From assembly GCA_040905425.1 (NCBI GenBank), contig JBBDRO010000030.1, positions 1 to 47,991 on the forward strand: a stretch of DNA of 47,991 bases, given 5' to 3'. This document shows, piece after piece, positions 6,750 through 44,886 of this stretch (position 1 is its first letter; the number at the start of each line of letters is the position of its first letter). Source of the stretch: Gemmatimonadota bacterium. GTDB taxonomy: Bacteria > Gemmatimonadota > Gemmatimonadetes > Longimicrobiales > RSA9. The notes beneath the pieces are model-generated. The model did not search any database. It was not told the DNA's origin and saw only the letters and a program-made list of their open reading frames with translations. Both the position numbers and the translations under genes were made by a program.

Positions 6750-7871
6750 ATGACCACCAGCACCCTTGCCGGCGGCGTGCCGACGAGCGCCTCCGACCGC
6801 TCCATCGCCGACTGGCGCACGGCCCTTCCCGAGGCACATCGCCGGCCGCTGCGTGCCTGGTTCTGGAGCATCGCCGCCATGACGCTGGGCGTGCTCATCA
6901 TCGGCGGCATCACACGTCTCACGCAGTCCGGGCTGAGCATCGTGGACTGGGATCCGCTCATGGGCGTCATCCCGCCGCTCGGTGACGCGCAGTGGCAGGA
7001 GGCCTTCGAGCGCTATCGCCAGTTCCCCGAATACCAGAAACTGCGCGAGGGGATGAGCCTGGGCCAGTTCAGGTTCATCTTCTTCTGGGAATATCTGCAC
7101 CGCCTCATGGCGCGCGCCATCGGCCTGGTCTTCCTGGTGCCGTTCGTGTTCTTGGCGCTGCGTGGCTGGCTGCGCAAGCCCCTCATGCTGCGCGCGCTCG
7201 GCCTCTTCGCGCTGGGCGCCATGCAGGGCGTGATGGGCTGGATCATGGTGGCCAGCGGGCTCGTGGACCGGCCGAGCGTGAGCCACTACCGCCTGGCCGC
7301 GCACCTCTCCCTGGCCTTCGTGATCTTCGGCTACGCGGTGTGGCTGGCGCGCGAGTTGAAGGTGGTAAGCGACTCGGCAACACTCCCTTCTTCCGCACTC
7401 CGGCTCCTGCGCCGGGGCCTGCTCCTGATGGGGGCGCTGCTCGGGTTGCAGGTCATCTGGGGGGCCTTCGTGGCGGGGCTCGATGCCGGCTTCTTCCACA
7501 ATACCTTTCCGCTGATGGCGGGGCGGTGGGTGCCCGCTGACCTGGCGCCCTACGATCCGGCCGTGGTGAACTTCCTGGTGCACCCCGTGGCCGTGCAGTG
7601 GACCCACCGGGTGCTGGGCACGCTGCTGACGCTCGCGGCGCTCGGCCTGGCCTGGTGGGCGCTCCGGGCCCCGTTGGACGCGCTATCCCGGCGTTACGCC
7701 GTGACGCTGGCCGGCCTCACGCTCGGGCAGTATCTGCTGGGCGTGGTGACGCTGTTGCTGGTGGTGCCGGTGCCTCTCGGCGTGGCCCATCAGGCGCTGG
7801 CCATGGTGCTCTTCGGCGTCTGGGTGATGTGGGTGCATCACGCGCGCGTTGCGTTAACTTCCCCGTCATGA
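6750..7871 (+). CDS. ctaA: Heme A synthase (COX15/CtaA)
   Basis: IGGITRLTQSGLSIVDW, EYLHR, RLAAHL, QWTHR and VAHQ conserved His motifs; about 8 TM helices. Confidence 0.93.
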   Translation: MTTSTLAGGVPTSASDRSIADWRTALPEAHRRPLRAWFWSIAAMTLGVLIIGGITRLTQSGLSIVDWDPLMGVIPPLGDAQWQEAFERYRQFPEYQKLREGMSLGQFRFIFFWEYLHRLMARAIGLVFLVPFVFLALRGWLRKPLMLRALGLFALGAMQGVMGWIMVASGLVDRPSVSHYRLAAHLSLAFVIFGYAVWLARELKVVSDSATLPSSALRLLRRGLLLMGALLGLQVIWGAFVAGLDAGFFHNTFPLMAGRWVPADLAPYDPAVVNFLVHPVAVQWTHRVLGTLLTLAALGLAWWALRAPLDALSRRYAVTLAGLTLGQYLLGVVTLLLVVPVPLGVAHQALAMVLFGVWVMWVHHARVALTSPS

Positions 7872-13043: not shown

Positions 13044-13138
13044 GTAGGGGAATTCCCTACATAAAATCAGGATTTACCTCCCCAGGAAATCCTTGCTTTC
13101 TATACATCATATTCGCATGATTAATAGCAGAAAGCAAG
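13044..13138. promoter_or_regulatory. AT-rich divergent control region with palindromic operator-like sites
   Basis: GTAGGG-GAATT-CCCTAC (13044-13060); AGGATTT/AAATCCT pair; CTTGCTTTCT(13092-13101)/AGAAAGCAAG(13129-13138) inverted repeat; TTGCTT-N17-CATGAT sigma70-like promoter on the + strand. Confidence 0.6.
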
Positions 13139-13178: not shown

Positions 13179-13355
13179 ATGAGCAGCCAGCCGCACGCCG
13201 GCTCCCCACCCCTCGACGAGGAGATCCCCCTCGGGCAGCGCCTGTATGACAACTGGGCGCTACTGATGGTGGCGGGGATCCTGATCATGGCCGTGGTCTA
13301 CACCGGCTGGGGTCTGTGGGAAGTGATGACGCTGCCGCAGGGCACACTCCCATGA
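13179..13355 (+). CDS. Small single-TM subunit of the heme-copper oxidoreductase (58 aa)
   Basis: Below the ORF-track cutoff: MSSQPHAGSPPLDEEIPLGQRLYDNWALLMVAGILIMAVVYTGWGLWEVMTLPQGTLP; GGAGG RBS; TGA overlaps the ATG of subunit II. Confidence 0.8.
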   Translation: MSSQPHAGSPPLDEEIPLGQRLYDNWALLMVAGILIMAVVYTGWGLWEVMTLPQGTLP

Positions 13356-13966
13356 GCCAGGAGAATGACGTGAACAGGAAACCGTTCCACACCGGGCTGG
13401 TGGCGCCGCAGGGGCGCTGGTGGGTGCCGGCGCACAAGGCGGAGAAGGTCTGGTTCATCATTGCCTTCGCCTGGTGCATGGTGCTCTTTGCCATGATGCC
13501 GCTGTGGCACCTGAAGGGCGGTCAGAACCCCTCCGGCATCCGCAGCAAGGTGGAACCCGCGGCCTTCACGGCGCGCGTGGAGCAGATGGTGGCGGACTAC
13601 CAGGTGGGGGAGATGAACGGCTACCCCGTCGTGGAGCCGCCCGCCGGCAGTGACATCTACCTGCTCGGGCGCATGTGGAGCTGGTACCCCGTCCTGAAAC
13701 TGAAGAAGGGCGTGGAGTACACGCTCCATCTCTCCTCGGTGGACGTGAACCACGGCTTCTCCCTGTACCCCGTAAATGTAAACTTCCAGGTGGTCCCGGG
13801 CTACGACTACGGCCTGCGCATCGTGCCCACCGAGGCGGGTGAGTTCAGCGTGATCTGCAACGAATTCTGTGGCGTGGGCCACCACATGATGCTGGGCAAG
13901 GTGCTCGTCACCGAGGAGGATGGGACCATGCCCGGCGCCGCCGTAGCCACCGGGGAGGTGGAGTGA
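13352..13966 (+). CDS. Heme-copper oxidoreductase subunit II (CuA)
   Basis: One TM helix; DVNHGF and CNEFCGVGHHMM CuA ligands. Confidence 0.92.
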   Translation: MSQENDVNRKPFHTGLVAPQGRWWVPAHKAEKVWFIIAFAWCMVLFAMMPLWHLKGGQNPSGIRSKVEPAAFTARVEQMVADYQVGEMNGYPVVEPPAGSDIYLLGRMWSWYPVLKLKKGVEYTLHLSSVDVNHGFSLYPVNVNFQVVPGYDYGLRIVPTEAGEFSVICNEFCGVGHHMMLGKVLVTEEDGTMPGAAVATGEVE

Positions 13967-15726
13967 TGTCCGTGACCACGACCGATACGGGCGCGCCCGC
14001 GCCCGGCATGATGGACCGCCTCTACCGGACCTGCGGGGTCACGGGACTCCGGCTGCACCGGCAGGCGGAGCTGCTCATCAAGGCCAACGCGGTGGCCGCC
14101 ACCGTGGCGCTGCTCATCGGTGGCATCAGCGCCATCCTGATCCTGCTCACCCGCTGGCAGGCGGTCCACCTGCTGGACCAGGTGTGGTACTACCGTGTGC
14201 TCACGGGCCACGGCATCACCATGCTCATCTTCTACATCATCTTCTTCGAGATGGCGGTGCTCTACTTTGCCGCCGGACCGTTGCTCAACAGCCGCATTGC
14301 CGCACCCAAGCTGGGCTGGTTCAACTTTGCCCTGATGACGCTGGGCGCGGTGATGGTGGAGTGGATGATCTGGACGGGCAAGGCGGACGTGCTGCTGTCC
14401 TCCTACGTGCCCCTCAGGGCCGATCCGCTCTACTACCTGGGCATCATCTTCTTTGCGGTGGGCGCGCTGCTGGTGTGCGCGCAGTTCTTTGCCACGCTGG
14501 TGATCGCCAAGCGGGAGAAGACCTACGAGGGCTCCATGCCCCTGGTCACCTTCGGCGCCACGACCGCGGCCATCATCGCTGTCATCACGCTCCTGCACGG
14601 CGCGGCCACCTACATCCCCACCTTCCTGTGGTCCATCGGCCTCATCAACATGGACCCGCAGGTCTACCGCATGCTGTGGTGGGCGCTCGGCCACTCCTCG
14701 CAGCAGATCAACGTGGCCGCCATGGTGTCCATCTGGTACCTGCTGGGCGCGCTCACGGTGGGCGCGGTAGTGCTGAACGAGAAGATCAGCCGCACGGCCT
14801 TCGTGCTCTACATCCTCTTCATTTCCATGGCCTCCGCCCACCATCTGCTGGTGGACCCGGGCTTCAGCCCGGCATGGAAGGTGGTCAACACCAGCTACTT
14901 CATGTACATGGCGGTGCTGGCCAGCCTGCTGCACGGCTTCACGGTGCCGGCGGGCGTGGAGGTGGGCCAGCGGCTGCGGGGCGCCACGCAGGGCCTCTTC
15001 GGCTGGGTGAAGCGGGCGCCCTGGGGTGACCCGGGCTTCAGCTCCATGGTGCTCTCCCTGGTGGTCTTCGGCTTCGTGGGCGGCATCACGGGCGTGACCA
15101 TCGGCACGGAGCAGATCAACATCGTGGCGCACAACACGCTGCGTGTGCCGGGTCACTTCCACGCCACGGTGGTGAGCGGCACCACCATGGCCTTCATGGG
15201 CGCCACCTACTACCTGATTCCGCTCATCTTCCAGAAGAAGGTGGCCTTCTGGCGGCTGGCGCAGGTGCAGCCGTACCTGTTCGCCGGCGGCATGCTCATG
15301 TTCTCCATCTTCATGTCCCTGGCGGGCGGCTTCGGCGCGCCGCGGCGCCACTGGGACATCACCTTCTCCAACGCCCCCTTCACGGAGTCCTTCCACCCGG
15401 CGGTGGACATGCTGCTCGGCGGCATGGGCGTGGGTGGGCTCCTGGCCGGTGTGGGCGGCGGCATCTACATCCTGGTGACCGTCTGGTCCGTCTTCTTCGG
15501 TGAGCGCTTCACGGAGGCCGACCGGGTGCCCGGCGCCCGCGGTCTGCCGCAGGGCATCACCAGCCCGCCGCGGCCCGCCACGCTGGAGGATGAGGAGAAC
15601 CTGCCCACGGGCAGGTGGGGCAACGCGCCCGGTACCATGGCGCTGGTGCTGATCTTCCTGGCGGTGTTCATCGTCTACTACTTTGCCAACTGGAAGATCC
15701 TCTCCTTCGTGTGGAAGATCGGCTGA
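13966..15726 (+). CDS. Heme-copper oxidoreductase subunit I, eNOR-type (putative nitric oxide reductase)
   Basis: All six His present (LTGHG, GHSSQQ, SAHHLL, GHFH), but helix VI has Gln where O2 reductases have the cross-linked Tyr. Confidence 0.8.
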   Translation: MSVTTTDTGAPAPGMMDRLYRTCGVTGLRLHRQAELLIKANAVAATVALLIGGISAILILLTRWQAVHLLDQVWYYRVLTGHGITMLIFYIIFFEMAVLYFAAGPLLNSRIAAPKLGWFNFALMTLGAVMVEWMIWTGKADVLLSSYVPLRADPLYYLGIIFFAVGALLVCAQFFATLVIAKREKTYEGSMPLVTFGATTAAIIAVITLLHGAATYIPTFLWSIGLINMDPQVYRMLWWALGHSSQQINVAAMVSIWYLLGALTVGAVVLNEKISRTAFVLYILFISMASAHHLLVDPGFSPAWKVVNTSYFMYMAVLASLLHGFTVPAGVEVGQRLRGATQGLFGWVKRAPWGDPGFSSMVLSLVVFGFVGGITGVTIGTEQINIVAHNTLRVPGHFHATVVSGTTMAFMGATYYLIPLIFQKKVAFWRLAQVQPYLFAGGMLMFSIFMSLAGGFGAPRRHWDITFSNAPFTESFHPAVDMLLGGMGVGGLLAGVGGGIYILVTVWSVFFGERFTEADRVPGARGLPQGITSPPRPATLEDEENLPTGRWGNAPGTMALVLIFLAVFIVYYFANWKILSFVWKIG

Positions 15727-16631
15727 TGGAGGGGCCGCGCCCGTCCCTGGCCAGGGAGGAGATGCAGGCGCTCGGGGGGCTGGTGGCCATCCTGGCGGTC
15801 ACCGCCTCCTGGTGGGCGCTGGCGCTGTGGCCGGTGGGCGACGCGCCCGCGTGGCTGGCGCGCACCCGCTACGTCTGCTTCGGCGTGGCCGAGACGGGGC
15901 TGCCGGACGCCGCCGGCTGGGGCGGCCTCGTGGCGGGGCCGGGCGGCATGCTGGCCATCCTGCTGGTGGGCTTCTGGGGCGGCTTCCGGGGGCTGCTGGC
16001 GCGGGCGCGCTGGTCGGTCCCCACGCGGGGGGTGCTGGCCGCCCTGTTGCTGGGCTTCCTCCTGCTGCCGGGTGGCGCGGCCCTGCGGGTGTGGAGCGTA
16101 GCCGCGGCCACGGCGGCCGACAGCGCGGCGGGCGGACTGCCGCCGGAGAGCTATCCGCGCCTGGATCGGGCGGCGCCGCCGCTGGCGCTCACGGCCCACG
16201 ACGGCAGCACCTTCGGCTGGGAGCAAACGGCCGGCACGCCCACGCTGGTCACCTTTGCCTACGGGCACTGCGTGACGGTCTGCCCGGTGGTGGTCCACGA
16301 CGCGCTCGTGGCGCGGGAGCGGCTGGCGGCGGAGGGCGTCCGGGTAGCCGTCGTGGTGATCACGCTGGACCCCTGGCGGGACACGCCCACGCGGCTCCCG
16401 GACCTGGCCCGCAGCTGGGGGCTGCCCGCCGAGGGCGCCTGGCTGCTGGGCGGCTCGGTGGCCGAGGTCGAGGCCGCCCTGGACGCCTGGGAGGTGCCGC
16501 GCAGCCGCGAGCCCACCACCGGGATGATCACCCACCCCGCGCTCACCTACGTGGTGGACGGCTCCGGCCGGGTGATGTTCGCGGCGGCGGGGGGCGCGGA
16601 CGCGCTCACCGTTCTCGTGGGCCGGCTGTGA
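15726..16631 (+). CDS. SCO family copper chaperone with extended N-terminal membrane domain
   Basis: TFAYGHCVTVCP (CxxxC), ITLDPWRDTP, ITH; about three N-terminal TM segments; ATG overlaps the subunit I stop. Confidence 0.88.
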   Translation: MEGPRPSLAREEMQALGGLVAILAVTASWWALALWPVGDAPAWLARTRYVCFGVAETGLPDAAGWGGLVAGPGGMLAILLVGFWGGFRGLLARARWSVPTRGVLAALLLGFLLLPGGAALRVWSVAAATAADSAAGGLPPESYPRLDRAAPPLALTAHDGSTFGWEQTAGTPTLVTFAYGHCVTVCPVVVHDALVARERLAAEGVRVAVVVITLDPWRDTPTRLPDLARSWGLPAEGAWLLGGSVAEVEAALDAWEVPRSREPTTGMITHPALTYVVDGSGRVMFAAAGGADALTVLVGRL

Positions 16632-16640
16632 GCTGAGCGC

Positions 16641-17504
16641 ATGCATGTGGCGCGCGCCTTCCTGGAGCTAACCAAGCCGGGCATCACGGTGTTCATCGGG
16701 GCCAGCACGGCGTCGGGGTTTTTGCTGGCGCTCGGTGGCTGGGGTGAGCCGGGTCGCCTACTGCTGGTGCTGGTGGCCACCATGGCCATGTCCGGAGGCG
16801 CGGCGGCGCACAACCACCTGGCCGAGCGCGGCACCGACGCCCGCATGCGGCGCACCGCGGGGCGGCCGCTCCCGGCGGGCATCATCCGCGTGCGGGACGC
16901 CACGCTGTTCGCGTGGGGGCTGGGCGGCGCGGGCTTCCTGCTCGCGCTGCTGACGCTGCCCTGGCAGACCACGCTCTTCCTGGTGCTCTGCCACGTGAGC
17001 TACGTGAACGTCTACACGCCTCTCAAGCGACGTTCGCCGCTCAGCACCCTGGCCGGCGCCGTACCCGGCGCCCTCCCCGTCCTGGCCGGCGCCGCCGCCA
17101 CCGGCCTGCCGCTCAGCACCGGGAGCGTGGCCCTGGCGGCGGTGCTCTTCACCTGGCAGGTGCCGCACTTCCTCTCGCTGGCGTGGCTGGCGCGGGAGGA
17201 CTACGCGCGGGCCGGGCAGCCCATGCTGGGCGTCCTGGACCCCGGCGGCAGCATGAGTGCGCGGGTGTCCTTGCTCTACGCCGCGGCCATGCCCGCCTTT
17301 GCCCTGGCCGCGGGCTGGGGCTCGGCGGCGGGCGGGGTGTTCACCGCGGGCGCCGTGCTGTGCGGCGGGGCCTACCTGGTGGCGGCCGCCCGCTTCGTGC
17401 GCGTGCCCGGCCGGCCCACGGCCCGCACGCTCTTCCTGGCCTCGCTGCTGGTGCTTCCCCTGCTCCTGGCCACGCTCGCCGCCGACCTGGTTCTGTCCAT
17501 CTGA
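16641..17504 (+). CDS. ctaB: Protoheme IX farnesyltransferase (heme O synthase)
   Basis: LTKPGI, DARMRRTAGRPLPAG, YTPLKR, GAVPGALP and WQVPHF motifs. Confidence 0.92.
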   Translation: MHVARAFLELTKPGITVFIGASTASGFLLALGGWGEPGRLLLVLVATMAMSGGAAAHNHLAERGTDARMRRTAGRPLPAGIIRVRDATLFAWGLGGAGFLLALLTLPWQTTLFLVLCHVSYVNVYTPLKRRSPLSTLAGAVPGALPVLAGAAATGLPLSTGSVALAAVLFTWQVPHFLSLAWLAREDYARAGQPMLGVLDPGGSMSARVSLLYAAAMPAFALAAGWGSAAGGVFTAGAVLCGGAYLVAAARFVRVPGRPTARTLFLASLLVLPLLLATLAADLVLSI

Positions 17505-24694: not shown

Positions 24695-26875
24695 CTACCC
24701 CCAACTCAGATCCACCTTCGACAGCGGCAGCTCCCGCACCCGGTGCCCCGTGGCCGCGAAGATGGCGTTGGTCAGCGCGGGGATGGCCGGCGGCAGCGCC
24801 GGCTCGCCCAGCCCCGTGGGGGAATTGTCCGTGATGCGGAAGAACACCTCCACGGGCGCCGCCTGCGTGAGGCGCAGGAGCGGGTAGTCGTGGAAGTTGC
24901 TCTGCGCCACGCGGCCGCGCTCGATGGTGATCTCCTGGCCCAGAGCGTGGGAGATGCCCTCCAGCACCGCGCCCTGCGCCTGGTGCTCGGCGTTCAGCGG
25001 GTTGATGATCTGGCTGCCCACGTCCCCGGCCACCCAGGCGCGGTCCACGCCCACCTCCCCCGCCTGGCTCACCGTGGCCTGCACCACCACCGCGAAGTAG
25101 CCGCGGTGGCTGTAGTGGAAGGCCACGCCCATGCCGGTGCCGCGGGGTAGCGCCGCGCGGTCGGCCCAGCCGCTCCGCTCCGCCACCATGCGCAGCACAC
25201 CGGCCATGCGCTCGGCGTCCAGCCCCTGCTCCTCACCCGTCTTCGCCAGCAGGTCCAGGCGGAACTGTACCGGGTCGGCGTCCGCCGCCACGGCCAGCTC
25301 GTCGATGAACGACTGCATGACGAAGCACAGCGCGTTGCTCCCTGGCGCGCGCATGGCGCCCGTGGGCACGCCGATGGGAATGACGGAGGTCTCCGTCCGG
25401 AAGGCGGGCACGAAGCCACCCGGGAACTCGCGGCCGCTCATGGTGGAGCTGGGTGCCGACCGCTCGCCGTGCGCGTAGGAGACGAAGTGGTCGTGCCAGG
25501 CCGTCAGCTCGCCCGCCTCGTTCAGCCCGCCGCGCAGGAAGTGGAAGCCGCCCGGCCGGTAGTGGTCGTGGCGGATGTCATCCTCGCGCGTCCACACCAG
25601 CTTCACCGGCGCGTCCACCTCACGGGCGATGCGCGCCGCCTCCACCATGTAGTCGTTGGAGAGGCGCCGCCCGAAGCCGCCGCCGCAGCGCAGCAGGTGG
25701 ATGGTGACCTGCTCCGCATCCACGCCCAGGGTGCCGGTCACCAGCCGCATGCCGCTGTCCGGCGTCTGCGTGGGCGCCCAGATCTCCAGCCGGTCCCCCT
25801 GCCAGTGCGCCGTGCAGTTCTGCGGCTCCAGGGGGGCGTGCGACAGGAACGGATACGCGTAGGCGGCCTCCACGGTCTGCGCTGCACGGGCCAGCGCGGC
25901 GGCCGCGTCCCCGTCGGCGCGGATCTCCCGCTGCCCCGGCCCGGCGGCCAGCCGCTCCGCTTCCGCCGCGAAACCGGCGCTGCTGTGGTCGGCCATGGCC
26001 CCCTCGTCCCACACCACCTCCAGCACGTCGCGCCGCGCCTTCTGGGCGGCCCACCAGTTGCCCGCCACGATGGCCACGCCGGACATGAGGCCGCGCAGGT
26101 CGTCCCCGCCCTCCACCACGAAGGCGTGCCGCACGCCGTCGGCGGCGCGCACGGCGTCCAGGTTGGCGCTCACCACCGTGCCGCCGAAGACCGGGCACTT
26201 CTGGAAGACCGCGTAGAGCATCCCGGGCAGGGTGAAGTCGATGCCGAAGATGGGCGCCCCGGTGACGATGTCCCGGTTGGCCACGTTCCTGACCGGCGTG
26301 CCGATGATGGTGAACTCGTCGGCGCTCTTGAGCGGCACACTGTCCAGCTCGGGCGCCGGTACGGCGGCGGCCGCCTCGGTCAGCTCCCCGTACCGGAGCG
26401 AGCGCCCGCTGGCGCGATGCAGCACGCGGCCCGCCTCGGTCTCGACCTGGTCAAGCGGCACGCCCCACTGCTCGGCGGCCGCGGTGCGCAGCATCAGGCG
26501 CGCGGCCGCGCCCACCCGCCGCATGGGCTCCCAGTTCTGCGGCGTGGCATTGCTGCCGCCCGCGAATTGTCCGTCGAAGCGGCTGTCCAGCCCCGCCTGT
26601 TCCACCGTCACCGACGCCCATGGCACGTCCAGCTCGTCGGCGATGAGCATGGGGAGCATGGTCTGCACACCCTGCCCGATCTCCGGGTTCTTGGCGATGA
26701 TCGTGACGAGATCATCGGGCGTGATGCGGATGAAGGCGTTGGGCTCGAAGTCCACGAGGGAGTCGGCCGCGAGGACGTCGCTTGAAAAGGGCAGGCGGGT
26801 GCCGAGCAGCATGCCACCACCGGCCAGGGCGGTGACGCGCAGGAAGCTTCTCCGGGTGACGGTGGCGGGGCTCAT
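24695..26875 (-). CDS. iorB: Xanthine dehydrogenase family molybdopterin-binding subunit (isoquinoline 1-oxidoreductase beta-like)
   Basis: Tat-like TRRSFL; EIGQG, GGGFGRR, MRAPG and GLGEP motifs. Confidence 0.9.
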
Positions 26876-27411
26876 CGGGCCACCTCCTCACCCCGTCCAT
26901 TGGTAAGCGACGACGCCGCGCCAGCGCTCGCGTCTCCTCCTCCACGCGCCGGCTCCGCCGCGCTCCCCGCGGCCCGATGGATGGCGGCGCGGATGCGCAG
27001 GTAGGTGGCGCAGCGGCACAGGTTGCCGTTCATGGCCGCGTCGATGTCCGCGTCCGTGGGACGCGGTGTGCGCTCCAGGAGCGCGGCGGCCGACATGAGC
27101 TGGCCTGCCTGGCAGTAACCGCACTGTGGCACGTCCAGCTCCTCCCAGGCGCGCTGCAGCGCGTGCGACGCGTCGGGTGAGAGGCCCTCGACGGTGCGCA
27201 CCTCGGCGCCCGCCACGGCGGAGGCGGGCAGCACGCACGAGCGGGTGGCGGCGCCGTTCAGCTGCACCGTGCACGCGCCGCACTGCGCCATGCCGCAGCC
27301 GAACTTGGTGCCCTTGAGATCCAGGATGTCCCGCAGCACCCAGAGCAGGGGCATGTCGGGAGCCACGTCGACCGTGTGGCGGGTGCCGTTGACCGTGAGG
27401 GTAAGCATCAT
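26872..27411 (-). CDS. iorA: (2Fe-2S)-binding subunit (isoquinoline 1-oxidoreductase alpha-like)
   Basis: [24 protein letters not shown] and NLCRCATY motifs; overlaps the iorB start. Confidence 0.92.
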
Positions 27412-27451
27412 GGTGTGCCGCTCCGCGGGAGGACGGAAAGGAGGATGGTCT

Positions 27452-27480
27452 ATTGTCGGGCGCGGGAGGCTCGGGGTCAA
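27452..27480 (-). promoter_or_regulatory. Putative sigma70 promoter of iorAB
   Basis: TTGACC-N17-GACAAT on the minus strand. Confidence 0.55.
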
Positions 27481-28938: not shown

Positions 28939-29856
28939 TCACCCCTCCCCGTCCATCCTCACCCGGAGCGGCACCAGCAGTAGCGGGCACCGCACCGTGC
29001 TCGCCACGCCCGCGGCGATGCTCCCCAGGAGGGTGCGAGCCACGAAACTGTAGCCGTGGGTGCCCATGACCACCAGGTCGGGCTGGAACTGCTCGGTTGC
29101 CGCCGTGACGCCTTCCACCTCCAGCGGGGCCGAGAAGGTGGAGGCGCGAATGGTTACCGGAGACCCACCGGGAAGACGACGCCTGGCCGCCTCGGTCTCC
29201 TTTTCCAGTAGCGCGTCCACCCCGAATGGGCGGTACATCCTGGTGGCAAATGCCTGGACGTGCACGATGTTCACCTCGGCGGAGCCCGGCGGGTCCCTCC
29301 GCTCCGGGGCCAGGGGGCCGGCGAGCCAGTCCACCACTGTCTCGAGCGCCTTGCGGGCGTGCTTGGAAAAATCGGTGGCCACCATCACCTGCTCGAGGGG
29401 CCGGGTGATGGCCTGGTGGGCAATAAGACATGGCCGCTCCGAGGTCCTGATCATACGGTCTGCGGTGGTGCCGAGCAGGTCGTCCAGCGCCGTACGCGGG
29501 GTGTGCTGGCCCAGCACCACCACATCCGCGGCTATGCTGTCGGCGAAGCGGGCAATCTCCTGGACGGGGATCCCCACTGCCACGTCGATCTCCACGGGGG
29601 GCGCGTCCTCTCCCAGGACGCGGTGGAACTGCTGCTCCAGCTCCTGCCGCGCCGAGTGGATGCGCTCCTCCTGCTCACGCTGATTTCCCGCCCCCTTCCA
29701 GTACGGAGGGACACGACGCGGCACGCAGTGGAAGAGCCGCATCCCGCTTCCCTCACCCGCTGCCAGCACCGCTGCGGTCCGCAGGGCGGCCTCCGAGCCT
29801 TCGGTCAGATCCGAGGTAGCGAGCACCGTACGCAGGGCATGCTTCTTCATGGTCAT
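28939..29856 (-). CDS. Universal stress protein (tandem USP domains)
   Basis: VLATSDLT, DVVVLG, LGTTADRMIR, VATDFS, DLVVMGTHG and LLGSIA motifs. Confidence 0.9.
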   Translation of the reverse strand: MTMKKHALRTVLATSDLTEGSEAALRTAAVLAAGEGSGMRLFHCVPRRVPPYWKGAGNQREQEERIHSARQELEQQFHRVLGEDAPPVEIDVAVGIPVQEIARFADSIAADVVVLGQHTPRTALDDLLGTTADRMIRTSERPCLIAHQAITRPLEQVMVATDFSKHARKALETVVDWLAGPLAPERRDPPGSAEVNIVHVQAFATRMYRPFGVDALLEKETEAARRRLPGGSPVTIRASTFSAPLEVEGVTAATEQFQPDLVVMGTHGYSFVARTLLGSIAAGVASTVRCPLLLVPLRVRMDGEG

Positions 29857-31484
29857 TCTCCGGGATCGGATCGGGGCCTCTCTTCGGGGTGCTGCGCCCT
29901 GGTGTCAGGAGCGGCTCCGGGCCGATTGCCGGTGTCCCCAGGGCCTGCGAACGTGGCCTTGAACCACTGGTTGAACTCGTCGGCAGCTGCCGCGGAGTAG
30001 AGGACGGGGATCCCGCCCCGTTCCTCCACCCAGAGAGCGTCCTCCTCGTCGAACACGCGCACGAGCACTGTGACCTGGGGTGCCGACTCAAGCAGGATTT
30101 GGTTGTCCCGGGGGCGACGGATCGTGGAGCCCACGAGCATCGCCTTCTCCACCCTGGCCACGCGGAGGACCTGGGGGTCGGAGGCCGTACCGTGCACACA
30201 CGCCACGCCCCCCTGGCGCAGGCGGGTGATGATCTCAGGGTCGTCGTCGATCACCACCACCTCCTCCCCGGCTGCCAGTAGCGTCTCCAGCAACGGCAGC
30301 CCTCCGGAACCGCACCCGAGAAGGACAATATGATTGCTCTGGGTGCCCTCTTCCATGTCCTTGCCAGCAAGGGGGTGGAGCCGGAGGAGCGCGTTCAGTC
30401 TGGCCTCACCGGTCAGGTACGGCGTCAGGACCATGGTGGCCACCGTAGCCAGCGCCAGCACGCTGAAGCTGTCCGGGGAGATGTGGCCGAGGAGCAGGGC
30501 GTGGAGCGCCACCACCAGGGACAGTTCGCTGGTCTGGGAGAGGAGGAGTCCCGCCTCCAGAGCCGGCCGCGCCGTGAAGCCGGAGCGTTCCGCCACCGCG
30601 GTGACCACCACTGGCGTGACCACCAGCACCACGAGCACCAGCACCAGGGCATGCACCAGTTCCCGGGGCCCGGGCACGGTGAGCAGCCCGCCCAGGGCCA
30701 GGAAGAAGATGGCGGTGAAGAAGACCACCACGGGCGTGAGCGGGCCACGCAGGAGCCCACTCACCGGAAACGGGGAGAGGGCCACCCCGGCCAGGAACGC
30801 CCCGGCCGCCACGGGCAGGGCAAGGGCGTGGGCCATGCCGACAAAGGCAAAGAGGACAGCCAGGCCGCCGAGCAGAAGAAGCTCCTCGTCCGCATGCAGG
30901 CGGGCGAGCCGCGGGGCCAGGCTCCGCTGCGCCAGGAAAGCCAGCGCCAGCAGCGCAGTCGTCCCTGCCAGGCTGGCCAGCACGGCCGGCCAACCGCCCG
31001 GGAGGCGAATGAGCAGGGGCATGAGGAGAATGATGAGAACGTCCTGCACCAGGAGTACGCCGGTGACCAGGCGGCCGTAAGGCTCAAAGAGCTGCCGCCG
31101 CTGCTGCAGGAGTGGGATGATGACCAGGGTGGAGCTGGCTGTCAGGGCCAGGCCAGTGTAGAGCGCCGTGAGGCCGTCAAATCCCAATGCCAGCGAGGTG
31201 AGCGTCCCGAGGAGTCCCAGGGTGGTGAACTGCAGAAATCCCACGCGCAGGGCAGCCGTCCTCTGTGCCCTCACCCGGCGGGGAGTCAGCTCCACGCCCA
31301 CCACGAAGAGAAGAAACGTGAGCCCCAGGACGAGAGCATCCTGCAGGAGGTCCGGAGGCAGAAGTCCCGCACGGGCCATGACGAAGCCCGCCAGCAACAA
31401 CAGGGGCGTGGCCGGAAGGCCCCACCGCCGGGCTATGCCGTGAGCCACCACGGCGCCTCCGAGGAAGAGGGCTATCTGGCTCAT
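29853..31484 (-). CDS. Cation:proton antiporter (CPA2/Kef-like) with TrkA-N domain
   Basis: LLFVVGVE, TASST, LLVQD and SQTSELS motifs; C-terminal HIVLLGCG; ATGA overlaps. Confidence 0.85.
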   Translation of the reverse strand: MSQIALFLGGAVVAHGIARRWGLPATPLLLLAGFVMARAGLLPPDLLQDALVLGLTFLLFVVGVELTPRRVRAQRTAALRVGFLQFTTLGLLGTLTSLALGFDGLTALYTGLALTASSTLVIIPLLQQRRQLFEPYGRLVTGVLLVQDVLIILLMPLLIRLPGGWPAVLASLAGTTALLALAFLAQRSLAPRLARLHADEELLLLGGLAVLFAFVGMAHALALPVAAGAFLAGVALSPFPVSGLLRGPLTPVVVFFTAIFFLALGGLLTVPGPRELVHALVLVLVVLVVTPVVVTAVAERSGFTARPALEAGLLLSQTSELSLVVALHALLLGHISPDSFSVLALATVATMVLTPYLTGEARLNALLRLHPLAGKDMEEGTQSNHIVLLGCGSGGLPLLETLLAAGEEVVVIDDDPEIITRLRQGGVACVHGTASDPQVLRVARVEKAMLVGSTIRRPRDNQILLESAPQVTVLVRVFDEEDALWVEERGGIPVLYSAAAADEFNQWFKATFAGPGDTGNRPGAAPDTRAQHPEERPRSDPGE

Positions 31485-33112
31485 TCCAGCACGCCCTTTG
31501 CGCGGAAGAGGCGGGCCATGCGCTTGGTTCCGGCGCTCTTCGACACCATTAGGTGGTCGGCGCCGTTGGCGCGGAGTTCCTCCATCAGGGCAAGGTCGAA
31601 GGCGTGGATGCTGGCGGGAACGCCGGCGTTCCGGCAGCGATAGGCCAACAGGTTGTTGGCGTCCTCGATCTGCAGCGCGGAAACCAGGAGCTTGGCACGC
31701 TCCAACCGCGCCTCGGCGAGCACGCTCGGGTCCTCGGCGCTGCCCAGCACCTTGCGGCTGGAGAGGGGGGCCAGTTTGAAGGGGTCCGTGTCGATGGCCA
31801 CGACCTCCTCACCCCGGTCCAGAAGATCGGTCACGATGCGGCGCCCCAGGGCGTTCATGCCAACCACGATGACGTGCCCACCAGGCAGATCTTCCTCCGC
31901 CACGTCTTCCGGCTCCGCCCTTGCGCCGAAGACCCTTAGCAGGCCGCGGCGCTTCACGAAGGCGTAGAGGGGCTGGTTGTAGAGAATCATGTACACGGAC
32001 CCGGCTATGGTCACCAGACCCACCACGCCGATGAGGGAGAGGACCGCGGCGTCGATGAGCCCGGCAGAGAGACCGACGGCGGCGAATACGAAGGAGAATT
32101 CGCTTATCTGGGCAACGGTGACACTGGTGAAGAAGGCCGTCCGCTCCCCGTAGCCCAGGCGGGCGATGACGGCCATGAAGATGATCGGGTTCCCCACGAG
32201 CACGAAGACGGACAGGAGAACGGCGGCCGCCCAGTGCTCGCCCGCCGCGCCGAGCTCCATCTCCACGGCCAGCGACACGAAGAAGACCATGACGAAGAAG
32301 CTCATGAGGGGATGCACCCGCCGGCGCAGCTCCCCACTGTACGGGAGCTGGGCCAGGCTGACTCCCGCCAGAAACGCCCCGATCTCCTTGGACACCCCCG
32401 TCCACTCCGCCGCCATCACGAAGAGGAAGCACCACCCCAGGCTCCAGATGAACATCCCCTCCGTGGACGTGCTCATCCAGGCGAAGAGGGGAGGGAGCAG
32501 GTAACGGGCGGCCAGGAGGGCGGCGCCCAGCAGAAGCGCCATGCCCCCGAACGCGGCCGCCAGGCTGCGGGCCACGGTTGCCGCGGTGAGTTCCTCGGGG
32601 TTACCCAGGCCGCTCAGCAGCGTGAGCGCTACGATGACCACAAGATCCTGCACCAGGAAAATCCCCACGGCAATGCGGCCGTAGAGGGTGTCCAGGTCAC
32701 CCTTCTGGGTGAGGACCTTCACCACCACCACGGTGCTGCTGAAGGTGAGTGCGGTGGCTATGAAGATGGACTCGATGACCCCGAAGCCCAGCAGGTAGGA
32801 GAGGACGAAGCCGCCGCAGGCCGTGAACGCCACCTGCCCGAGCCCCGCCAGGATGGCCACGCGACCCACGTCCCGGATCTTGTCGAGGCTGAGCTCTAGC
32901 CCCACGAGAAAGAGGAGCAGGACTATCCCCGTCTCGGTGATCAGGTGCACGGCGGCGGTGGGCTCGAGAAGGCCCGTGGCGGGCCCCAGGAGGAGGCCCG
33001 CCACGATGAACGCCACGATGGCGGGCGCCCTGGCCACCCGAGCCAGGAGGGCCGCGGCCATGGCGGCGATGACGATCTTGCCGAGGTCGAAGAGGATTGC
33101 CGGATCCAGCAT
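31481..33112 (-). CDS. Cation:proton antiporter (CPA2/Kef-like) with TrkA-N domain
   Basis: LLFLVGLE, TFSSTVV, FLVQD and AQISEFSF motifs; C-terminal HVIVVGMNALG. Confidence 0.88.
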   Translation of the reverse strand: MLDPAILFDLGKIVIAAMAAALLARVARAPAIVAFIVAGLLLGPATGLLEPTAAVHLITETGIVLLLFLVGLELSLDKIRDVGRVAILAGLGQVAFTACGGFVLSYLLGFGVIESIFIATALTFSSTVVVVKVLTQKGDLDTLYGRIAVGIFLVQDLVVIVALTLLSGLGNPEELTAATVARSLAAAFGGMALLLGAALLAARYLLPPLFAWMSTSTEGMFIWSLGWCFLFVMAAEWTGVSKEIGAFLAGVSLAQLPYSGELRRRVHPLMSFFVMVFFVSLAVEMELGAAGEHWAAAVLLSVFVLVGNPIIFMAVIARLGYGERTAFFTSVTVAQISEFSFVFAAVGLSAGLIDAAVLSLIGVVGLVTIAGSVYMILYNQPLYAFVKRRGLLRVFGARAEPEDVAEEDLPGGHVIVVGMNALGRRIVTDLLDRGEEVVAIDTDPFKLAPLSSRKVLGSAEDPSVLAEARLERAKLLVSALQIEDANNLLAYRCRNAGVPASIHAFDLALMEELRANGADHLMVSKSAGTKRMARLFRAKGVLE

Positions 33113-33274: not shown

Positions 33275-34477
33275 CTACCGCCCGCCCGCCGCGTCCCGTC
33301 CCCCCTCCCGCAGCATCTCCACCGCGGCCCGCTGAACCCGTGCGGCGCCTTCCCCCGAAGCGAGGGTGTTGGCGGTGTTGTATGCCACGATCACGGCGGT
33401 CCGCGTGCGCGGGTTGAAGAACAGGAAGACGCGAAAGCCGGCCTGGCTGCCGGTGTGACCCAGGACGCGGTCCTCCCCCTCTCCCAGGATGAAGAAGGAG
33501 AGGCCCATCCACTGCCCGGCGCCCGCCTGGTAGCCGGCGGTCATCGGCGCCACGGGGCGCCACATCTCCTGGAGCGCGGCGCTCGGCAGGATCGTGTCGT
33601 TCGGGGCGGCGCCCGTCAGGAAGGCCGCGTAGGTGGCCAGGTCACCGAGCGGCGCGTTCCAGCCGCCATTGGGTGTGGTGATGCCGGGGTCGAAGTCGGC
33701 ACCGTTGTCGATCACCACCGGCGCACCGAGGCTGTCCCGCCGCACGTGGTAATTGTGTGAGCGGTCCACGGCCAGGTGGTAGGGCGTGGCGCGGAAGTAG
33801 CTCCGCGTGAGGCCCAGCGGGCCGAAGATGTTCTTGTGGACGTAGCTCTCCCAGCTGTCCCCGCTCAGCTGCTCCACGATGCGCGCCAGGTAGATGAAGG
33901 CGGGGTTGGAGTAGCCGTAGCGCGAGCCCGGCGGAAAATGCAGTCGTTGATAAGGCATCATGGCCACGAGCTGCGCCCACTCGGTGGGTTCGAACGGCTC
34001 CCAGGCGTGCCCCTCGTCGTAGGGCCAGGTGGGGTTCATGAAGCCCGCGGTGTGGGAGAGCAGCATGCGGATGGTGATCCCCTCGAGCGCGCGGTAGGGG
34101 TCGTGCACGCGGCGCAGCTCGGGCACGTAGTCGACGACCGGATCGTCCAGGGTCAGCAGGCCGCGGTCGCGCAGCTGCATGACGGCGATGGCCGTCAGCG
34201 TCTTGGTGATGGAGCCCCAGTGGAAGAGGGTGGCGCTGTCCACCGGCACACCGGCGGCGCGGTCCGCCATGCCGAGTTCGAGGCGGTCCAGCACGCGGCC
34301 GTCCCGCATCACCAGCGCGGCGGCGCCCACCACGGCATCGGCGGCCACATAGGCACGGAAGGTGTCCTTGAACGCATCCCAGCCGTGCGGCGTCTGCGCG
34401 GCCGCGCCGCGCGGGCCCAGGGCGCAGAAGCCCACCAGGAGGGCGGCGGTGGTCGGGCGAAGCGTGAGCGGACGCAT
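33275..34477 (-). CDS. Serine hydrolase, beta-lactamase (class C-like) family
   Basis: SITK (SxxK), LLSHTAG, YGYSN and GHTG motifs; signal peptide from ATG 34477. Confidence 0.9.
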   Translation of the reverse strand: MRPLTLRPTTAALLVGFCALGPRGAAAQTPHGWDAFKDTFRAYVAADAVVGAAALVMRDGRVLDRLELGMADRAAGVPVDSATLFHWGSITKTLTAIAVMQLRDRGLLTLDDPVVDYVPELRRVHDPYRALEGITIRMLLSHTAGFMNPTWPYDEGHAWEPFEPTEWAQLVAMMPYQRLHFPPGSRYGYSNPAFIYLARIVEQLSGDSWESYVHKNIFGPLGLTRSYFRATPYHLAVDRSHNYHVRRDSLGAPVVIDNGADFDPGITTPNGGWNAPLGDLATYAAFLTGAAPNDTILPSAALQEMWRPVAPMTAGYQAGAGQWMGLSFFILGEGEDRVLGHTGSQAGFRVFLFFNPRTRTAVIVAYNTANTLASGEGAARVQRAAVEMLREGGRDAAGGR

Positions 34478-34605
34478 GGGCGGATGATCGTGTGCGGCGC
34501 GAGCGGGGGCAAGCCGCACCGCCGTCCTTCCCCTCCCCCCGCCCGCCGCGTTACTCTGTGTCAGCACGGAAATCCACTCAGCACCCCGCTTCCGGAAGGC
34601 CACCC

Positions 34606-42028: not shown

Positions 42029-42454
42029 TCACCCGCTGCGCCGTCGCGCCAGCCAGCCGTCCACGCTCCACCGCCCCGGCCCGTTGGCCGCCAGGAACGC
42101 GAAGATGAGCGCATAGAGCAGCGCCAGCTCACCGCCGTTCCGGATGGGCGCCAGCCCCCGGCCGGCGTGCGCCAGGACGTAGGCGGCCAGCATCTCCAGC
42201 GCCAGGATGACGGCCACCGGCAGCGTCAGCACGCCCAGCACGATGAGCGCGCCCCCGAAGAGCTCCAGCACGCCGGCCAGCCCGGACCGACTCATCAGTT
42301 CCACGGTCTGCCCCGGCCCCCCAATGCCGCCGAACCAGCCCAGCAGCTTCTGCGCGCCGTGTTGCATGAAGAGCAGCCCCGCGCCGATGCGCAGGACGGC
42401 GTGCGTGATGCTGGCCGCGGTGCCCATCATGGGGCGTGTGCTCGTGGTTTCCAT
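42029..42454 (-). CDS. DoxX family membrane protein
   Basis: LRIGAGLLF..HGAQKL, ELFGG, NGGE and GPGRWSVD motifs. Confidence 0.9.
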   Translation of the reverse strand: METTSTRPMMGTAASITHAVLRIGAGLLFMQHGAQKLLGWFGGIGGPGQTVELMSRSGLAGVLELFGGALIVLGVLTLPVAVILALEMLAAYVLAHAGRGLAPIRNGGELALLYALIFAFLAANGPGRWSVDGWLARRRSG

Positions 42455-42600
42455 GTTCGTCTCTCCGTTCGAGGTCTGGGTGCCGACGAGCTACATGCAA
42501 GAATCACAGCACTGAGATAATTCGGCGGTGCCATGGTCTCCGGCCTCGGCCTGCCACATCTTTAGCGATCGTCCCCTTCCCCTGGTCCCACGGATCCACC

Positions 42601-44886
42601 ATGAAGCCATCTTCGACGCTGCGTCTGTTGGTGGCGGCGTCACTGCTGCCGGGTGCGGTGCCGGGCACGTCCCCGTACGCGCGCTCGCACACCGCGCCGC
42701 TCAGCGCCCAGGAGCCCGCGCCCGCCGCCACCATCCACCGCGACGCCTGGGGCGCGCCGCACGTCTTCAGTGACACGGACCGTGGCGCCGTCTTCGGCAT
42801 GGCCTGGGCGCTGGCCGAGGATGACTGGCCGCTCATCGAGCAGAACTACCTGCGTGCGCTGGGTCGCCTGGCGGAGCTCGAGGGCGCCGACGCCGTGGAG
42901 GGGGACTGGATGGCGCGCGCGCTGGAGATCGTGCCGCTCTCGCTGGCCGAGTACGCCGCCGCCACGCCCCGCATGCGCGGCCTGCTGGACGCCTTCGCCG
43001 CGGGCATGAACGGCTGGCTGGCGCGCCGGGTGCCGGACGGGGTGCGCGTGCTCGAGCGCATCGAGCCGTGGTACCCGCTGGCCCTCATCCGCTTCAAATA
43101 CTACCAGAACGAGTTTCTGGGCTACGCGGGGCTCCGGAGCGCCTGGTCGCGCGCCCTCTTCGCGCGCAGCGCGGCGGCCGCGGTGAGTGGTGCCGGGCCC
43201 GGGGAGCCGGCGCCGGACACCGGAACGGAGATAAGCGACGTCGCTTATCTCCGTTCGAACGCGCCCGCCCCCTTCTCCCGCGAGGCCGCGTTCGATGACT
43301 GGGGACGGCGGCCGCGCGGTTCCAACGAGTGGGCGCTCGCGCCCGCGCGTACCGCGTCGGGCGAAGCGTTCCTGCTCATCAATCCGCACCAGAGCTTCGT
43401 GGGCGTGCAGCGCTACGCGGAGATCCATCTGGACAGCCGCGAGGGCCTCCGTTTTTCCGGGCTCACGGTGTTCGGCTTCCTGCTCCCATACATGGGACAC
43501 AACGAGCGCCTTGGGTGGGCCTACACGGACAACTACGCCGACCACAGTGACCTGTGGGCCGAATCGATCTCCGGCCCCGGGGACGCGCTGCGCTATCGGT
43601 ACGGCGCTGAGGAGCGACCGGTGGAGACGTGGGTGGACACCGTGCGCGTGCGCACCGCGGACGGACTGGAGGCGCGCGCCTTCCGCTACTGGAGGACGCA
43701 CCACGGTCCGCTGGTGGGCGTGGACGGGGCGGGCCGCCCGCTGGCCGTGCGCCTGGCGCGCATGCGGGAGGGCGGCTGGTTCGATCAGTGGGACGCCATG
43801 ATCCGCGCGCGCACGCTGGAGGATTGGCGGGCGGCCGTGGCCATGCTGCGCGTGCCCTACATGAACACCATGTACGCCGACGCGGACGGCAACATAGGCT
43901 ACATCTACAACTCGGCCGTGCCGCGCCGGCTGCCGGGCGTGGATCCGTCGGGCATCCTGGACGGCACCGATCCGCGCACGGCGTGGCAGGGCTTCCACGC
44001 GCTGGAGGAGCTGCCGCAGGTGTGGAACCCGCCGTCGGGCTGGCTGCTGAACACCAACTCCACCCCCTTCACGGCCACCGTGGACCTGCCCTTCAGTCGG
44101 GCGGATTTCCCGGCCTACATGGTGGGCTCCGAGACGGACAACGCGCGGGCGGCCAGTTCGCGGCGCCTGCTGGCGGGCCTCGAGGGGGTGCGCTTCGAGG
44201 ACTTCGCGGCGCACGTCTGGGACAGCCGGCTCTCGGCGGCGGAGGCGGGCGTGCCGGAGCTGCTGGCCGAGTGGGCGCGGGTGGAGGCGGGCGGGGCGGG
44301 AGCGGCGGCGCTGCCCGCGGAGGTGTCCAGACAGGCGCTGGCGGACGCGGTGGCGCGGCTGGACGCGTGGGACCGCCGCGCCGACACGGCCTCGGTGGCC
44401 ACCACCTGGTTCGTGCTGGCCTCCGAGCTGCGCGCGCGGGAGGGCGCGCTGCCCTGGCTCACCGCGCTCGGTTCGGCGCTCGCACGTCTGGAGGCGGAGT
44501 GGGGCAGCGCCGAGGTGGCATGGGGCGTGCTCAATCGGCATCAGCGGCCACTGCCCGGCGCCCCTCCCGGGCTGGACCCGGACCGATCGCATCTGGCGGT
44601 GGGCGGCGCCCCGGGCAATCTGGGCTCGATCTTCACCTACAACGCCACGCCGTTCGGCAGCGCGGCGCCCCGCTGGGGCCGCAGCGGCAACTCGTTCGTG
44701 AAGGTGGTGGCGTTCGGCCCCACGGTGCGCGCCGCCTCCATCCTGAACTACGGCCAGAGCGGGGACCCGGACTCCCCGCACTTCTTCGATCAGGCAGAGC
44801 TCTACGCGCGCCGGCAGTTCAAGCCGGCCTGGTTCAGTCGCGCGGAGGTGGTGGCGAACGCGGTGCGGAGTTACGAGGTGAGGTAG
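42601..44886 (+). CDS. Penicillin acylase family Ntn-hydrolase
   Basis: IHRDAWGAPHV, GSNEW (beta-chain N-terminal Ser), LLINPH and GQSGDPDSPHFFDQA motifs. Confidence 0.92.
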   Translation: MKPSSTLRLLVAASLLPGAVPGTSPYARSHTAPLSAQEPAPAATIHRDAWGAPHVFSDTDRGAVFGMAWALAEDDWPLIEQNYLRALGRLAELEGADAVEGDWMARALEIVPLSLAEYAAATPRMRGLLDAFAAGMNGWLARRVPDGVRVLERIEPWYPLALIRFKYYQNEFLGYAGLRSAWSRALFARSAAAAVSGAGPGEPAPDTGTEISDVAYLRSNAPAPFSREAAFDDWGRRPRGSNEWALAPARTASGEAFLLINPHQSFVGVQRYAEIHLDSREGLRFSGLTVFGFLLPYMGHNERLGWAYTDNYADHSDLWAESISGPGDALRYRYGAEERPVETWVDTVRVRTADGLEARAFRYWRTHHGPLVGVDGAGRPLAVRLARMREGGWFDQWDAMIRARTLEDWRAAVAMLRVPYMNTMYADADGNIGYIYNSAVPRRLPGVDPSGILDGTDPRTAWQGFHALEELPQVWNPPSGWLLNTNSTPFTATVDLPFSRADFPAYMVGSETDNARAASSRRLLAGLEGVRFEDFAAHVWDSRLSAAEAGVPELLAEWARVEAGGAGAAALPAEVSRQALADAVARLDAWDRRADTASVATTWFVLASELRAREGALPWLTALGSALARLEAEWGSAEVAWGVLNRHQRPLPGAPPGLDPDRSHLAVGGAPGNLGSIFTYNATPFGSAAPRWGRSGNSFVKVVAFGPTVRAASILNYGQSGDPDSPHFFDQAELYARRQFKPAWFSRAEVVANAVRSYEVR
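43223..43256. repeat. Perfect 34-bp palindrome inside the acylase CDS
   Basis: GAACGGAGATAAGCGACGTCGCTTATCTCCGTTC equals its own reverse complement. Confidence 0.95.

Follow-up and report, generated by a model that had tools for sequence, protein, structure and literature searches.

A putative eNOR-type nitric oxide reductase, its divergent cytochrome b partner and a predicted operator common to nirK in a Longimicrobiales bacterium

The eNOR locus and its genes

The DNA analysed here, hereafter called the window, is a stretch of 47,991 nucleotides (contig JBBDRO010000030.1, assembly GCA_040905425.1) from a Gemmatimonadota bacterium of the order Longimicrobiales. At its centre of interest lies a gene for a subunit I belonging to the heme-copper superfamily, in which a glutamine (Gln) stands where oxygen (O2) reductases have a cross-linked tyrosine (Tyr). 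We assign the gene to the eNOR family of nitric oxide (NO) reductases, and on the strength of its sequence the enzyme very probably reduces NO to nitrous oxide (N2O) and not O2 to water.

The gene is the third of a row of five: a gene for a 58-amino-acid protein, the gene for a CuA subunit II, subunit I, SCO, and ctaB, the first four of which have overlapping stop and start codons (the start of the SCO gene was inferred from its one-nucleotide overlap with the stop codon of subunit I). The open reading frame (ORF) of subunit I has a G+C content at third codon positions of 0.95. The coordinates of these genes, and of those transcribed away from them, are collected in Table 1, together with their occurrence at 80 related genome loci; these counts cover only the fetched flanks, and many of the loci are ended by contig edges. 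The gene for subunit II was found at 78 of the 80 loci, and each of its six CuA ligands, like the glutamate E31, is invariant in all 76 aligned rows. The 58-amino-acid protein has conserved P-x-x-Q-R and W-G motifs, and we take it, by analogy, to be similar to subunit IIa of ba3 oxidase. An original prediction, made from the letters of the window, had regarded the linked ctaB and the nearby ctaA as fitting an eNOR. Both genes are real, but the evidence from ctaA for eNOR is weak: no second copy was found in the genome, which encodes A- and B-family oxidases as well.

Table 1. Features of the eNOR locus (positions in the window; occurrence among the 80 related loci where given)
Feature	Coordinates	Strand	Evidence and occurrence
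ctaA, heme A synthase, loosely linked	6750..7871	+	PF02628; 16/80 loci; sole copy found in genome
Membrane-anchored protein, 171 amino acids, conserved C51/H65/M66/C72	10937..11452	-	61/80 loci
Di-heme cytochrome b (H80/H94, H181/H195) with 2x[4Fe-4S] and MvhD/FlpD domain, 522 amino acids	11449..13017	-	
Palindromic predicted operator between the divergent operons, core ATCAT-N6-ATGAT at 13106-13121	13103..13124	.	also upstream of nirK
Single-helix membrane protein, 58 amino acids, likely small subunit	13179..13355	+	73/80 loci
Subunit II, CuA cupredoxin (H134, C169, E171, C173, H177, M180; channel-entry E31)	13352..13966	+	
eNOR subunit I, 586 amino acids, heme-copper superfamily, B-family fold	13966..15726	+	PF00115, E 3e-61; Gln clade
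Helix VI motif H243-S-S-Q-Q247, Gln in place of cross-linked Tyr	14692..14706	+	ba3 alignment; 80/80 loci
Span of predicted K-type proton channel residues Y258 (14737), S320 (14923), H323 (14932); covers His292/His293	14737..14934	+	
SCO1/SenC copper chaperone, membrane N-terminus	15726..16631	+	PF02630; 75/80 loci
ctaB/cyoE, heme O synthase	16641..17504	+	TIGR01473, 213 bits vs cut-off 210; 10/80 loci

The active site of subunit I

When subunit I is aligned to the ba3 oxidase of T. thermophilus, its six histidine (His) ligands are His82, 243, 292, 293, 397, and 399, and all of them are invariant in the 70 aligned near-full-length subunit I rows. The helix VI motif follows a glycine (Gly) codon at 14689-14691, and in the alignment Q247 stands opposite Y237, the cross-linked Tyr of the H-P-x-x-Y motif of ba3. 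All 120 of the best homologs, with the window's own protein counted among them, have Gln here, as do all 80 related loci, where the motif reads HSSQQ in 73, HSAQQ in 4, HASQQ in 2, and HSTQQ in 1. Because Gln is fixed in both sets, a sequencing error or chance is excluded for HSSQQ, and a pseudogene is likewise rejected. Among the channel residues, Y258 is kept in 70 of 70 rows and H323 in 69 of 70.

In cbb3 oxidases the cross-linking Tyr lies in helix VII, about six residues before the His-His pair. A relocated Tyr was looked for at this position of the window protein, and Ile286 was found there instead. Helix VII does contain a Tyr, Y282, which all 70 rows share and which lies ten residues before His292.

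An AlphaFold2 model of subunit I (predicted local distance difference test score 88) has as its nearest solved structure the ba3 oxidase of T. thermophilus (Protein Data Bank (PDB) entries 1EHK and 3S8F; template modelling (TM) score 0.75), and the PDB searches with subunit I turned up no eNOR structure, their best matches being of the ba3 type. The two enzymes share the fold, the six His ligands, a CuA subunit II, and a single K-type channel, but they are only about 25% identical, the H-P-x-V-Y of ba3 is replaced by H-S-S-Q-Q, and His323 stands where ba3 has Thr312.

Assignment to the eNOR family

In published work, Gln at the Tyr site is the criterion for eNOR, and the misannotation of eNOR genes is also remarked upon (PMC8756737). 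Besides this Gln, the window protein has its heme His ligands and the full set of three metal-B His, unlike gNOR; its gene adjoins that of a CuA-containing subunit II; and the K-channel residues Y258, S320, and H323 are accompanied by E31 of subunit II. The corresponding residues of the purified eNOR of Rhodothermus marinus are Q245, Y256, S318, H321, and E(II)21 (Dataset S1, PMC11214002), so that Q247, Y258, S320, and H323 of the window protein are spaced identically, at a constant offset of +2. The Tyr site is occupied by asparagine (Asn) in bNOR and sNOR and by glutamate (Glu) in nNOR (Dataset S1, PMC11214002), and membership of these three is rejected by Q247. An A- or B-family O2 reductase with H-P-x-V-Y is rejected by HSSQQ and by a TIGR02891 score of 65 bits against a cut-off of 671, and a C-family (cbb3) O2 reductase by Ile286 at the Tyr position and by the CuA type of subunit II.

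The phylogeny agrees with this assignment. In a tree of 37 rows, all nine Gln rows form one clade with a Shimodaira-Hasegawa-like approximate likelihood ratio test (SH-aLRT) value of 100, which requires a single change at the Tyr site, and this clade sits on the B-family side of the tree, beside lineages that keep the Tyr (H-x-x-Q-Y). Among its members are the homolog of isolate J028, which is 72% identical, and that of Thermomicrobium roseum, at 50%; the genomes of both are scored ENOR=1 in Dataset S8 of PMC11214002, which also holds 12 Longimicrobiales genomes with eNOR. A further member is a T. thermophilus plasmid protein with lysine (Lys) at the position of His399, encoded near nirS; a His/Lys variant at the low-spin heme position has been described for eNORs (PMC11214002). 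Named T. thermophilus plasmids (10 records) carry an eNOR of this His/Lys type under the label of a ba3 oxidase, and on plasmid AP031329.1 (5304-8161) the eNOR lies near nirS with an Rrf2 gene adjoining. The sister H-x-x-Q-Y lineages (P0125, P0128, P0130, and P0147), in which the Tyr is kept, already have the eNOR-type serine and His channel residues, and they may represent O2-reducing stages in the descent of eNOR. Perhaps they correspond to the B9 subfamily of Murali et al.

The closest named relatives of the window protein, about 85% identical, are Longimicrobiales sequences that carry the label cbb3-type or cytochrome c oxidase subunit I. Thus, the description in the original prediction, a "cytochrome c oxidase" subunit I that lacks the catalytic Tyr, retains all six His ligands, uses a CuA subunit II, is likely an eNOR, and would be misannotated as cox1 by pipelines, agrees with the alignments, the tree, the operon content, and the labels of close relatives, and the alternative cross-linking Tyr that it had named as a ground for giving up the assignment was not seen at the cbb3 position. 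Judged by its sequence, membership of the eNOR family is nearly certain. The family and its presence in Longimicrobiales have already been published, and the window gene is an ordinary member.

A predicted operator common to eNOR and nirK

The 161-bp intergenic region between the eNOR operon and the divergent partner genes holds a palindromic predicted operator, TTTATCAT-N6-ATGATAAA. Its core, with at most one mismatch, occurs at 39 of 71 loci against a mean of 0.07 in shuffled sequences, and with a spacer of 5 or 7 it occurs at none of the 71. An FNR-type site in the eNOR promoters was rejected (2 of 71 loci against 2.1 in shuffled sequences). A weight matrix was trained on 38 sites, all of them taken from other genomes; with a threshold of 14 bits, it finds 10 sites of at least that score in the organism's own genome of 4.1 Mb. 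The first in rank lies 74 nucleotides upstream of nirK (C42:3777-3798, 36 bits; C numbers denote contigs of this genome), the second is the eNOR promoter (30.5 bits), and the eighth precedes an Rrf2 gene on C18 (15.8 bits). A third exact core is located at C46:29619-29640, by a TetR-like gene and an ORF that matches no Pfam family. Among relatives, the motif reaches at least 14 bits upstream of nirK in 17 of 33, in comparison with 3 of 400 random windows. Because it precedes nirK in eNOR-positive and eNOR-negative genomes alike, the predicted operator is the mark of a nirK regulon spread across the lineage, to which eNOR has been added. Quite apart from the active site, a predicted operator common to eNOR and nirK supports a role in NO metabolism.

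An Rrf2 gene is located between the divergent operons at 38 of the 71 loci and is absent from the window's own locus. Elsewhere in the genome, C18:32793-33272 encodes an Rrf2 regulator of 146 amino acids with a C-terminal C-x6-C-x5-C-x2-H motif, which is 58% identical to the locus-linked Rrf2. An Rrf2 regulator probably binds the predicted operator, and the weak operator match upstream of the C18 gene suggests autoregulation. The NsrR regulons resemble this arrangement in that an Rrf2 regulator is tied by a palindrome to nirK and NO-reductase genes, but the NsrR consensus of Rodionov et al., gATGyAT-N5-ATrCATc, has a spacer of 5 nucleotides (PMC1274295), in contrast to the N6 spacer here. NsrR itself, as protein or as regulon, is rejected: the site differs, and the two linked Rrf2 proteins that were scanned score 36-50 bits on the NsrR model, whose cut-off is 182. 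A search of the literature library at hand returned no paper on eNOR with Rrf2, and among the titles listed for regulons none dealt with such an operator.

A divergent cytochrome b-Fe-S-MvhD partner

The gene transcribed away from the eNOR operon encodes a di-heme cytochrome b that continues into an Fe-S part with two CxxCxxCxxxC motifs and an MvhD domain. All 62 aligned rows share its heme, Fe-S, and MvhD ligands, apart from the fourth MvhD cysteine, which is Gly in the window protein and in 9 of the 62 rows. Going by the six helices of the protein model, the Fe-S part would lie on the cytoplasmic side. The model resembles the cytochrome b of bc1 and b6f complexes; the PEWY motif is degenerate and variable, no Rieske gene was found among the genes annotated next to the partner, and a separate cytochrome b with PEWY is encoded on C113, all of which makes an ordinary bc-complex cytochrome b unlikely. 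The 171-amino-acid protein encoded beyond it has a domain that, in structural look-alikes from other phyla, is fused to cytochrome b/Fe-S/FlpD proteins.

The partner follows eNOR closely. Its gene was found at 71 of the 80 loci, and the nine misses have at most 1245 nucleotides of upstream sequence. Among 151 sampled Longimicrobiales genomes, it is present in 38 of the 39 with eNOR and in none of the 112 others, and the one exception has its eNOR at a contig edge. In the phylum of the Acidobacteriota locus (301 genomes), five genomes have eNOR and six have the partner, the sixth with an eNOR cut by a contig end. These co-occurrence counts include kin that are not independent, and no test statistic is attached to them. 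A plasmid of Defluviimonas sp. SAOS-178 carries the whole eNOR and partner set in one operon. The partner was not found within 6 kb of the eNOR loci of T. roseum and T. thermophilus.

We prefer to see the partner as a transmembrane electron wire that may serve metal loading or reductive activation, presumably in the manner of NosR and CcoG. A less preferred alternative is that it would supply electrons directly to eNOR. A comparable operon has been described in Ferrigenium straubiae KS (Becker et al., bioRxiv 10.64898/2026.01.22.701106): it contains genes for eNOR II, eNOR I, and a heme O synthase, then sco1, a gene called "scaffold" that has no known function, and one for a cytochrome b-[Fe-S] protein, similar to the genes here, and in addition encodes a cytochrome b-FeS-FAD-NADH protein. 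The cytochrome b genes are described there as rather unusual, whereas a cytochrome b-Fe-S-MvhD protein is the rule in both lineages sampled in this study, and its gene in the window is transcribed divergently, unlike in the F. straubiae operon.

Oxygen and nitrogen enzymes of the organism and its order

The genome is a metagenome-assembled genome of 4.12 Mb (70% G+C, 96.7% complete). It encodes three Tyr-type oxidases, two with HPEVY and one of the B-family with HAIVY. The search of the genome for nirK, nirS, and nosZ that the original prediction had proposed gave a divided answer: nirK is located on C42 (3851-4954; 349 bits against a cut-off of 296, with the ligand motifs present), and neither nirS nor nosZ was found in the 96.7% complete genome. 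Downstream of nirK are a formylglycine-generating-enzyme-like ORF and a SCO-like ORF. A second NirK-like protein (C80:11097-12329, minus strand) has a twin-arginine leader and the ligand motifs, and scores 186 bits against the same cut-off. The genome also has nrfA (C61:7721-9178, 434 bits) with CxxCH as its first heme motif, where CxxCK is usual. By reading of the sequences, its four molybdopterin matches look like FdhF, a Ttr-type enzyme, NuoG, and ActB, with no Nar or Nap recognized among them. The predicted path in this organism therefore runs from nitrite to NO to N2O, and because nirK is present and nosZ was not found, the organism is likely an N2O source.

In the survey of the order, 39 of the 151 genomes have eNOR. 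An A-family oxidase accompanies it in 38 of the 39; nirS was detected in one of the 39, and none of 14 control genomes matched in the nirS search. As for nosZ, it is present in 34 of the 151 genomes. Six single-contig genomes (G001, G010, G037, G040, G109, and G121) have eNOR and the partner, and nirK, nirS, and nosZ were not found in them.

Proposed function and alternative explanations

The purified eNOR of R. marinus DSM 4252 (WP_012842681.1) reduced NO and not O2 (PMC11214002). The predicted enzyme of the window resembles it in the Gln at the Tyr site, in a conserved Glu that lies early in subunit II, in the CuA subunit, and in a nearby ctaA. On this model, CuA would take up electrons from a periplasmic donor and hand them to a low-spin a-type heme, from which they would move on to the site formed by the high-spin heme and metal B (predicted to be Fe), where 2 NO + 2e- + 2H+ would give N2O + H2O, a two-electron chemistry that should need no Tyr radical. 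Protons from the cytoplasm may travel via E31 of subunit II, S320/H323, and Y258 to Q247, and the reaction would therefore be electrogenic. The NO consumed would likely be made by the NirK encoded on C42, whose gene has the common predicted operator, and N2O would be the end product, nosZ not having been found. The hosts differ: R. marinus is a complete denitrifier, whereas in the window host, which seems to be mesophilic, nirK is present and searches turned up no nosZ, nirS, Nap, or Nar.

Several points weigh against this assignment and function. The match to the R. marinus enzyme is one of published residue numbers and not an alignment. The tree was a quick IQ-TREE run on 37 of 43 aligned rows (left out were three wrong-frame ORFs and three truncated or frameshifted proteins) with SH-aLRT support only and no bootstrap, and it contains neither R. 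marinus nor named bNOR, sNOR, gNOR, nNOR, cNOR, or C-family rows. NO reduction is extrapolated from one purified eNOR, the only family member assayed, and that enzyme is slow (kcat 0.68 per s at 25 C; PMC11214002). In the order, nirK is not enriched among genomes with eNOR (14 of 39, against 34 of 112 others); neither nirK nor nirS was detected in 24 of the 39, six of which are single-contig genomes. The operator upstream of nirK is likewise not specific to eNOR, being found in 7 of 13 eNOR-positive and in 10 of 20 eNOR-negative genomes (the latter being 20 of 34 such genomes). Because 24 carriers are without a detected nirK or nirS, many carriers would reduce NO made elsewhere, or eNOR has another role.

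The first of these two options keeps the chemistry and changes the job: eNOR would mainly scavenge or detoxify NO from neighbours, hosts, or side reactions, and so protect the aerobic oxidases, instead of working in a denitrification pathway of the cell itself. It is compatible with NO reduction and differs only in physiology, and we consider it possible without favouring it. The carriers lacking a nitrite reductase, the A-family oxidase in all but one of the carriers, and the nrfA of a genome in which no Nar or Nap was recognized speak in its favour, whereas the organism's own nirK with the same predicted operator and the conserved K-channel, which suggests energy conservation, do not. The second option, that eNOR and its cytochrome b-Fe-S partner have another main substrate or an electrogenic role, with NO reduction as a side activity, seems improbable to us. 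The low turnover of the R. marinus enzyme, the near-obligate and uncharacterised partner, and the lack of co-occurrence with nitrite reductases would suit it, and a divergent role is raised in PMC8756737; but the predicted operator is common to eNOR and nirK, eNOR is the only NO reductase of the complete denitrifier R. marinus (PMC11214002), and the partner is missing within 6 kb at the T. roseum and T. thermophilus loci.

Still less probable, and in our estimate very much so, is an O2 reductase that draws its fourth electron from another residue, such as a Tyr relocated as in cbb3. The ba3-like fold, the CuA subunit, SCO, ctaB, and ctaA would all be at home in such an enzyme, its nearest sister lineages keep the Tyr with the same serine and His channel residues, and Y282 is an invariant Tyr in helix VII. 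Y282, however, lies ten residues before His292 and not about six, the cbb3 position, which is held by an Ile; three Tyr-type oxidases are already encoded in the genome; and in the work of Murali et al. a migrated Tyr is not reported, nor did the R. marinus eNOR reduce O2 (PMC11214002). NO reduction thus continues to be the reading that we favour.

Other genes in the window

Outside the eNOR locus, the minus strand encodes the large subunit of a molybdoenzyme of the xanthine dehydrogenase family with its [2Fe-2S] subunit (24695-27480), two tandem cation/H+ exchangers with TrkA-N domains together with a universal stress protein (28939-33112), and a hydrolase of the serine beta-lactamase family (33275-34603); a gene of the penicillin amidase family is located on the plus strand (42436-44886).

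Implications

As long as pipelines label eNOR genes as cytochrome c or cbb3 oxidases, a capacity for turning NO into N2O is overlooked. A wider and more tentative reading, which as a whole we hold to be rather unlikely, is that the eNOR of Longimicrobiales and Acidobacteriota is part of a larger machine with a cytochrome b wire, Rrf2 control, and NO scavenging. In such a machine, the di-heme cytochrome b (with its 2x[4Fe-4S] and MvhD parts) and the periplasmic Cys2/His/Met protein might pass electrons across the membrane; these electrons might load or activate the CuA and metal-B sites, or feed eNOR directly without a bc complex; and an undescribed Rrf2 regulator acting on TTTATCAT-N6-ATGATAAA might control the machine along with nirK. 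The scavenging part is proposed because most carriers are without a nitrite reductase of their own. If all this were true, the carriers would be a widespread and overlooked scavenging sink for NO and a source of N2O.

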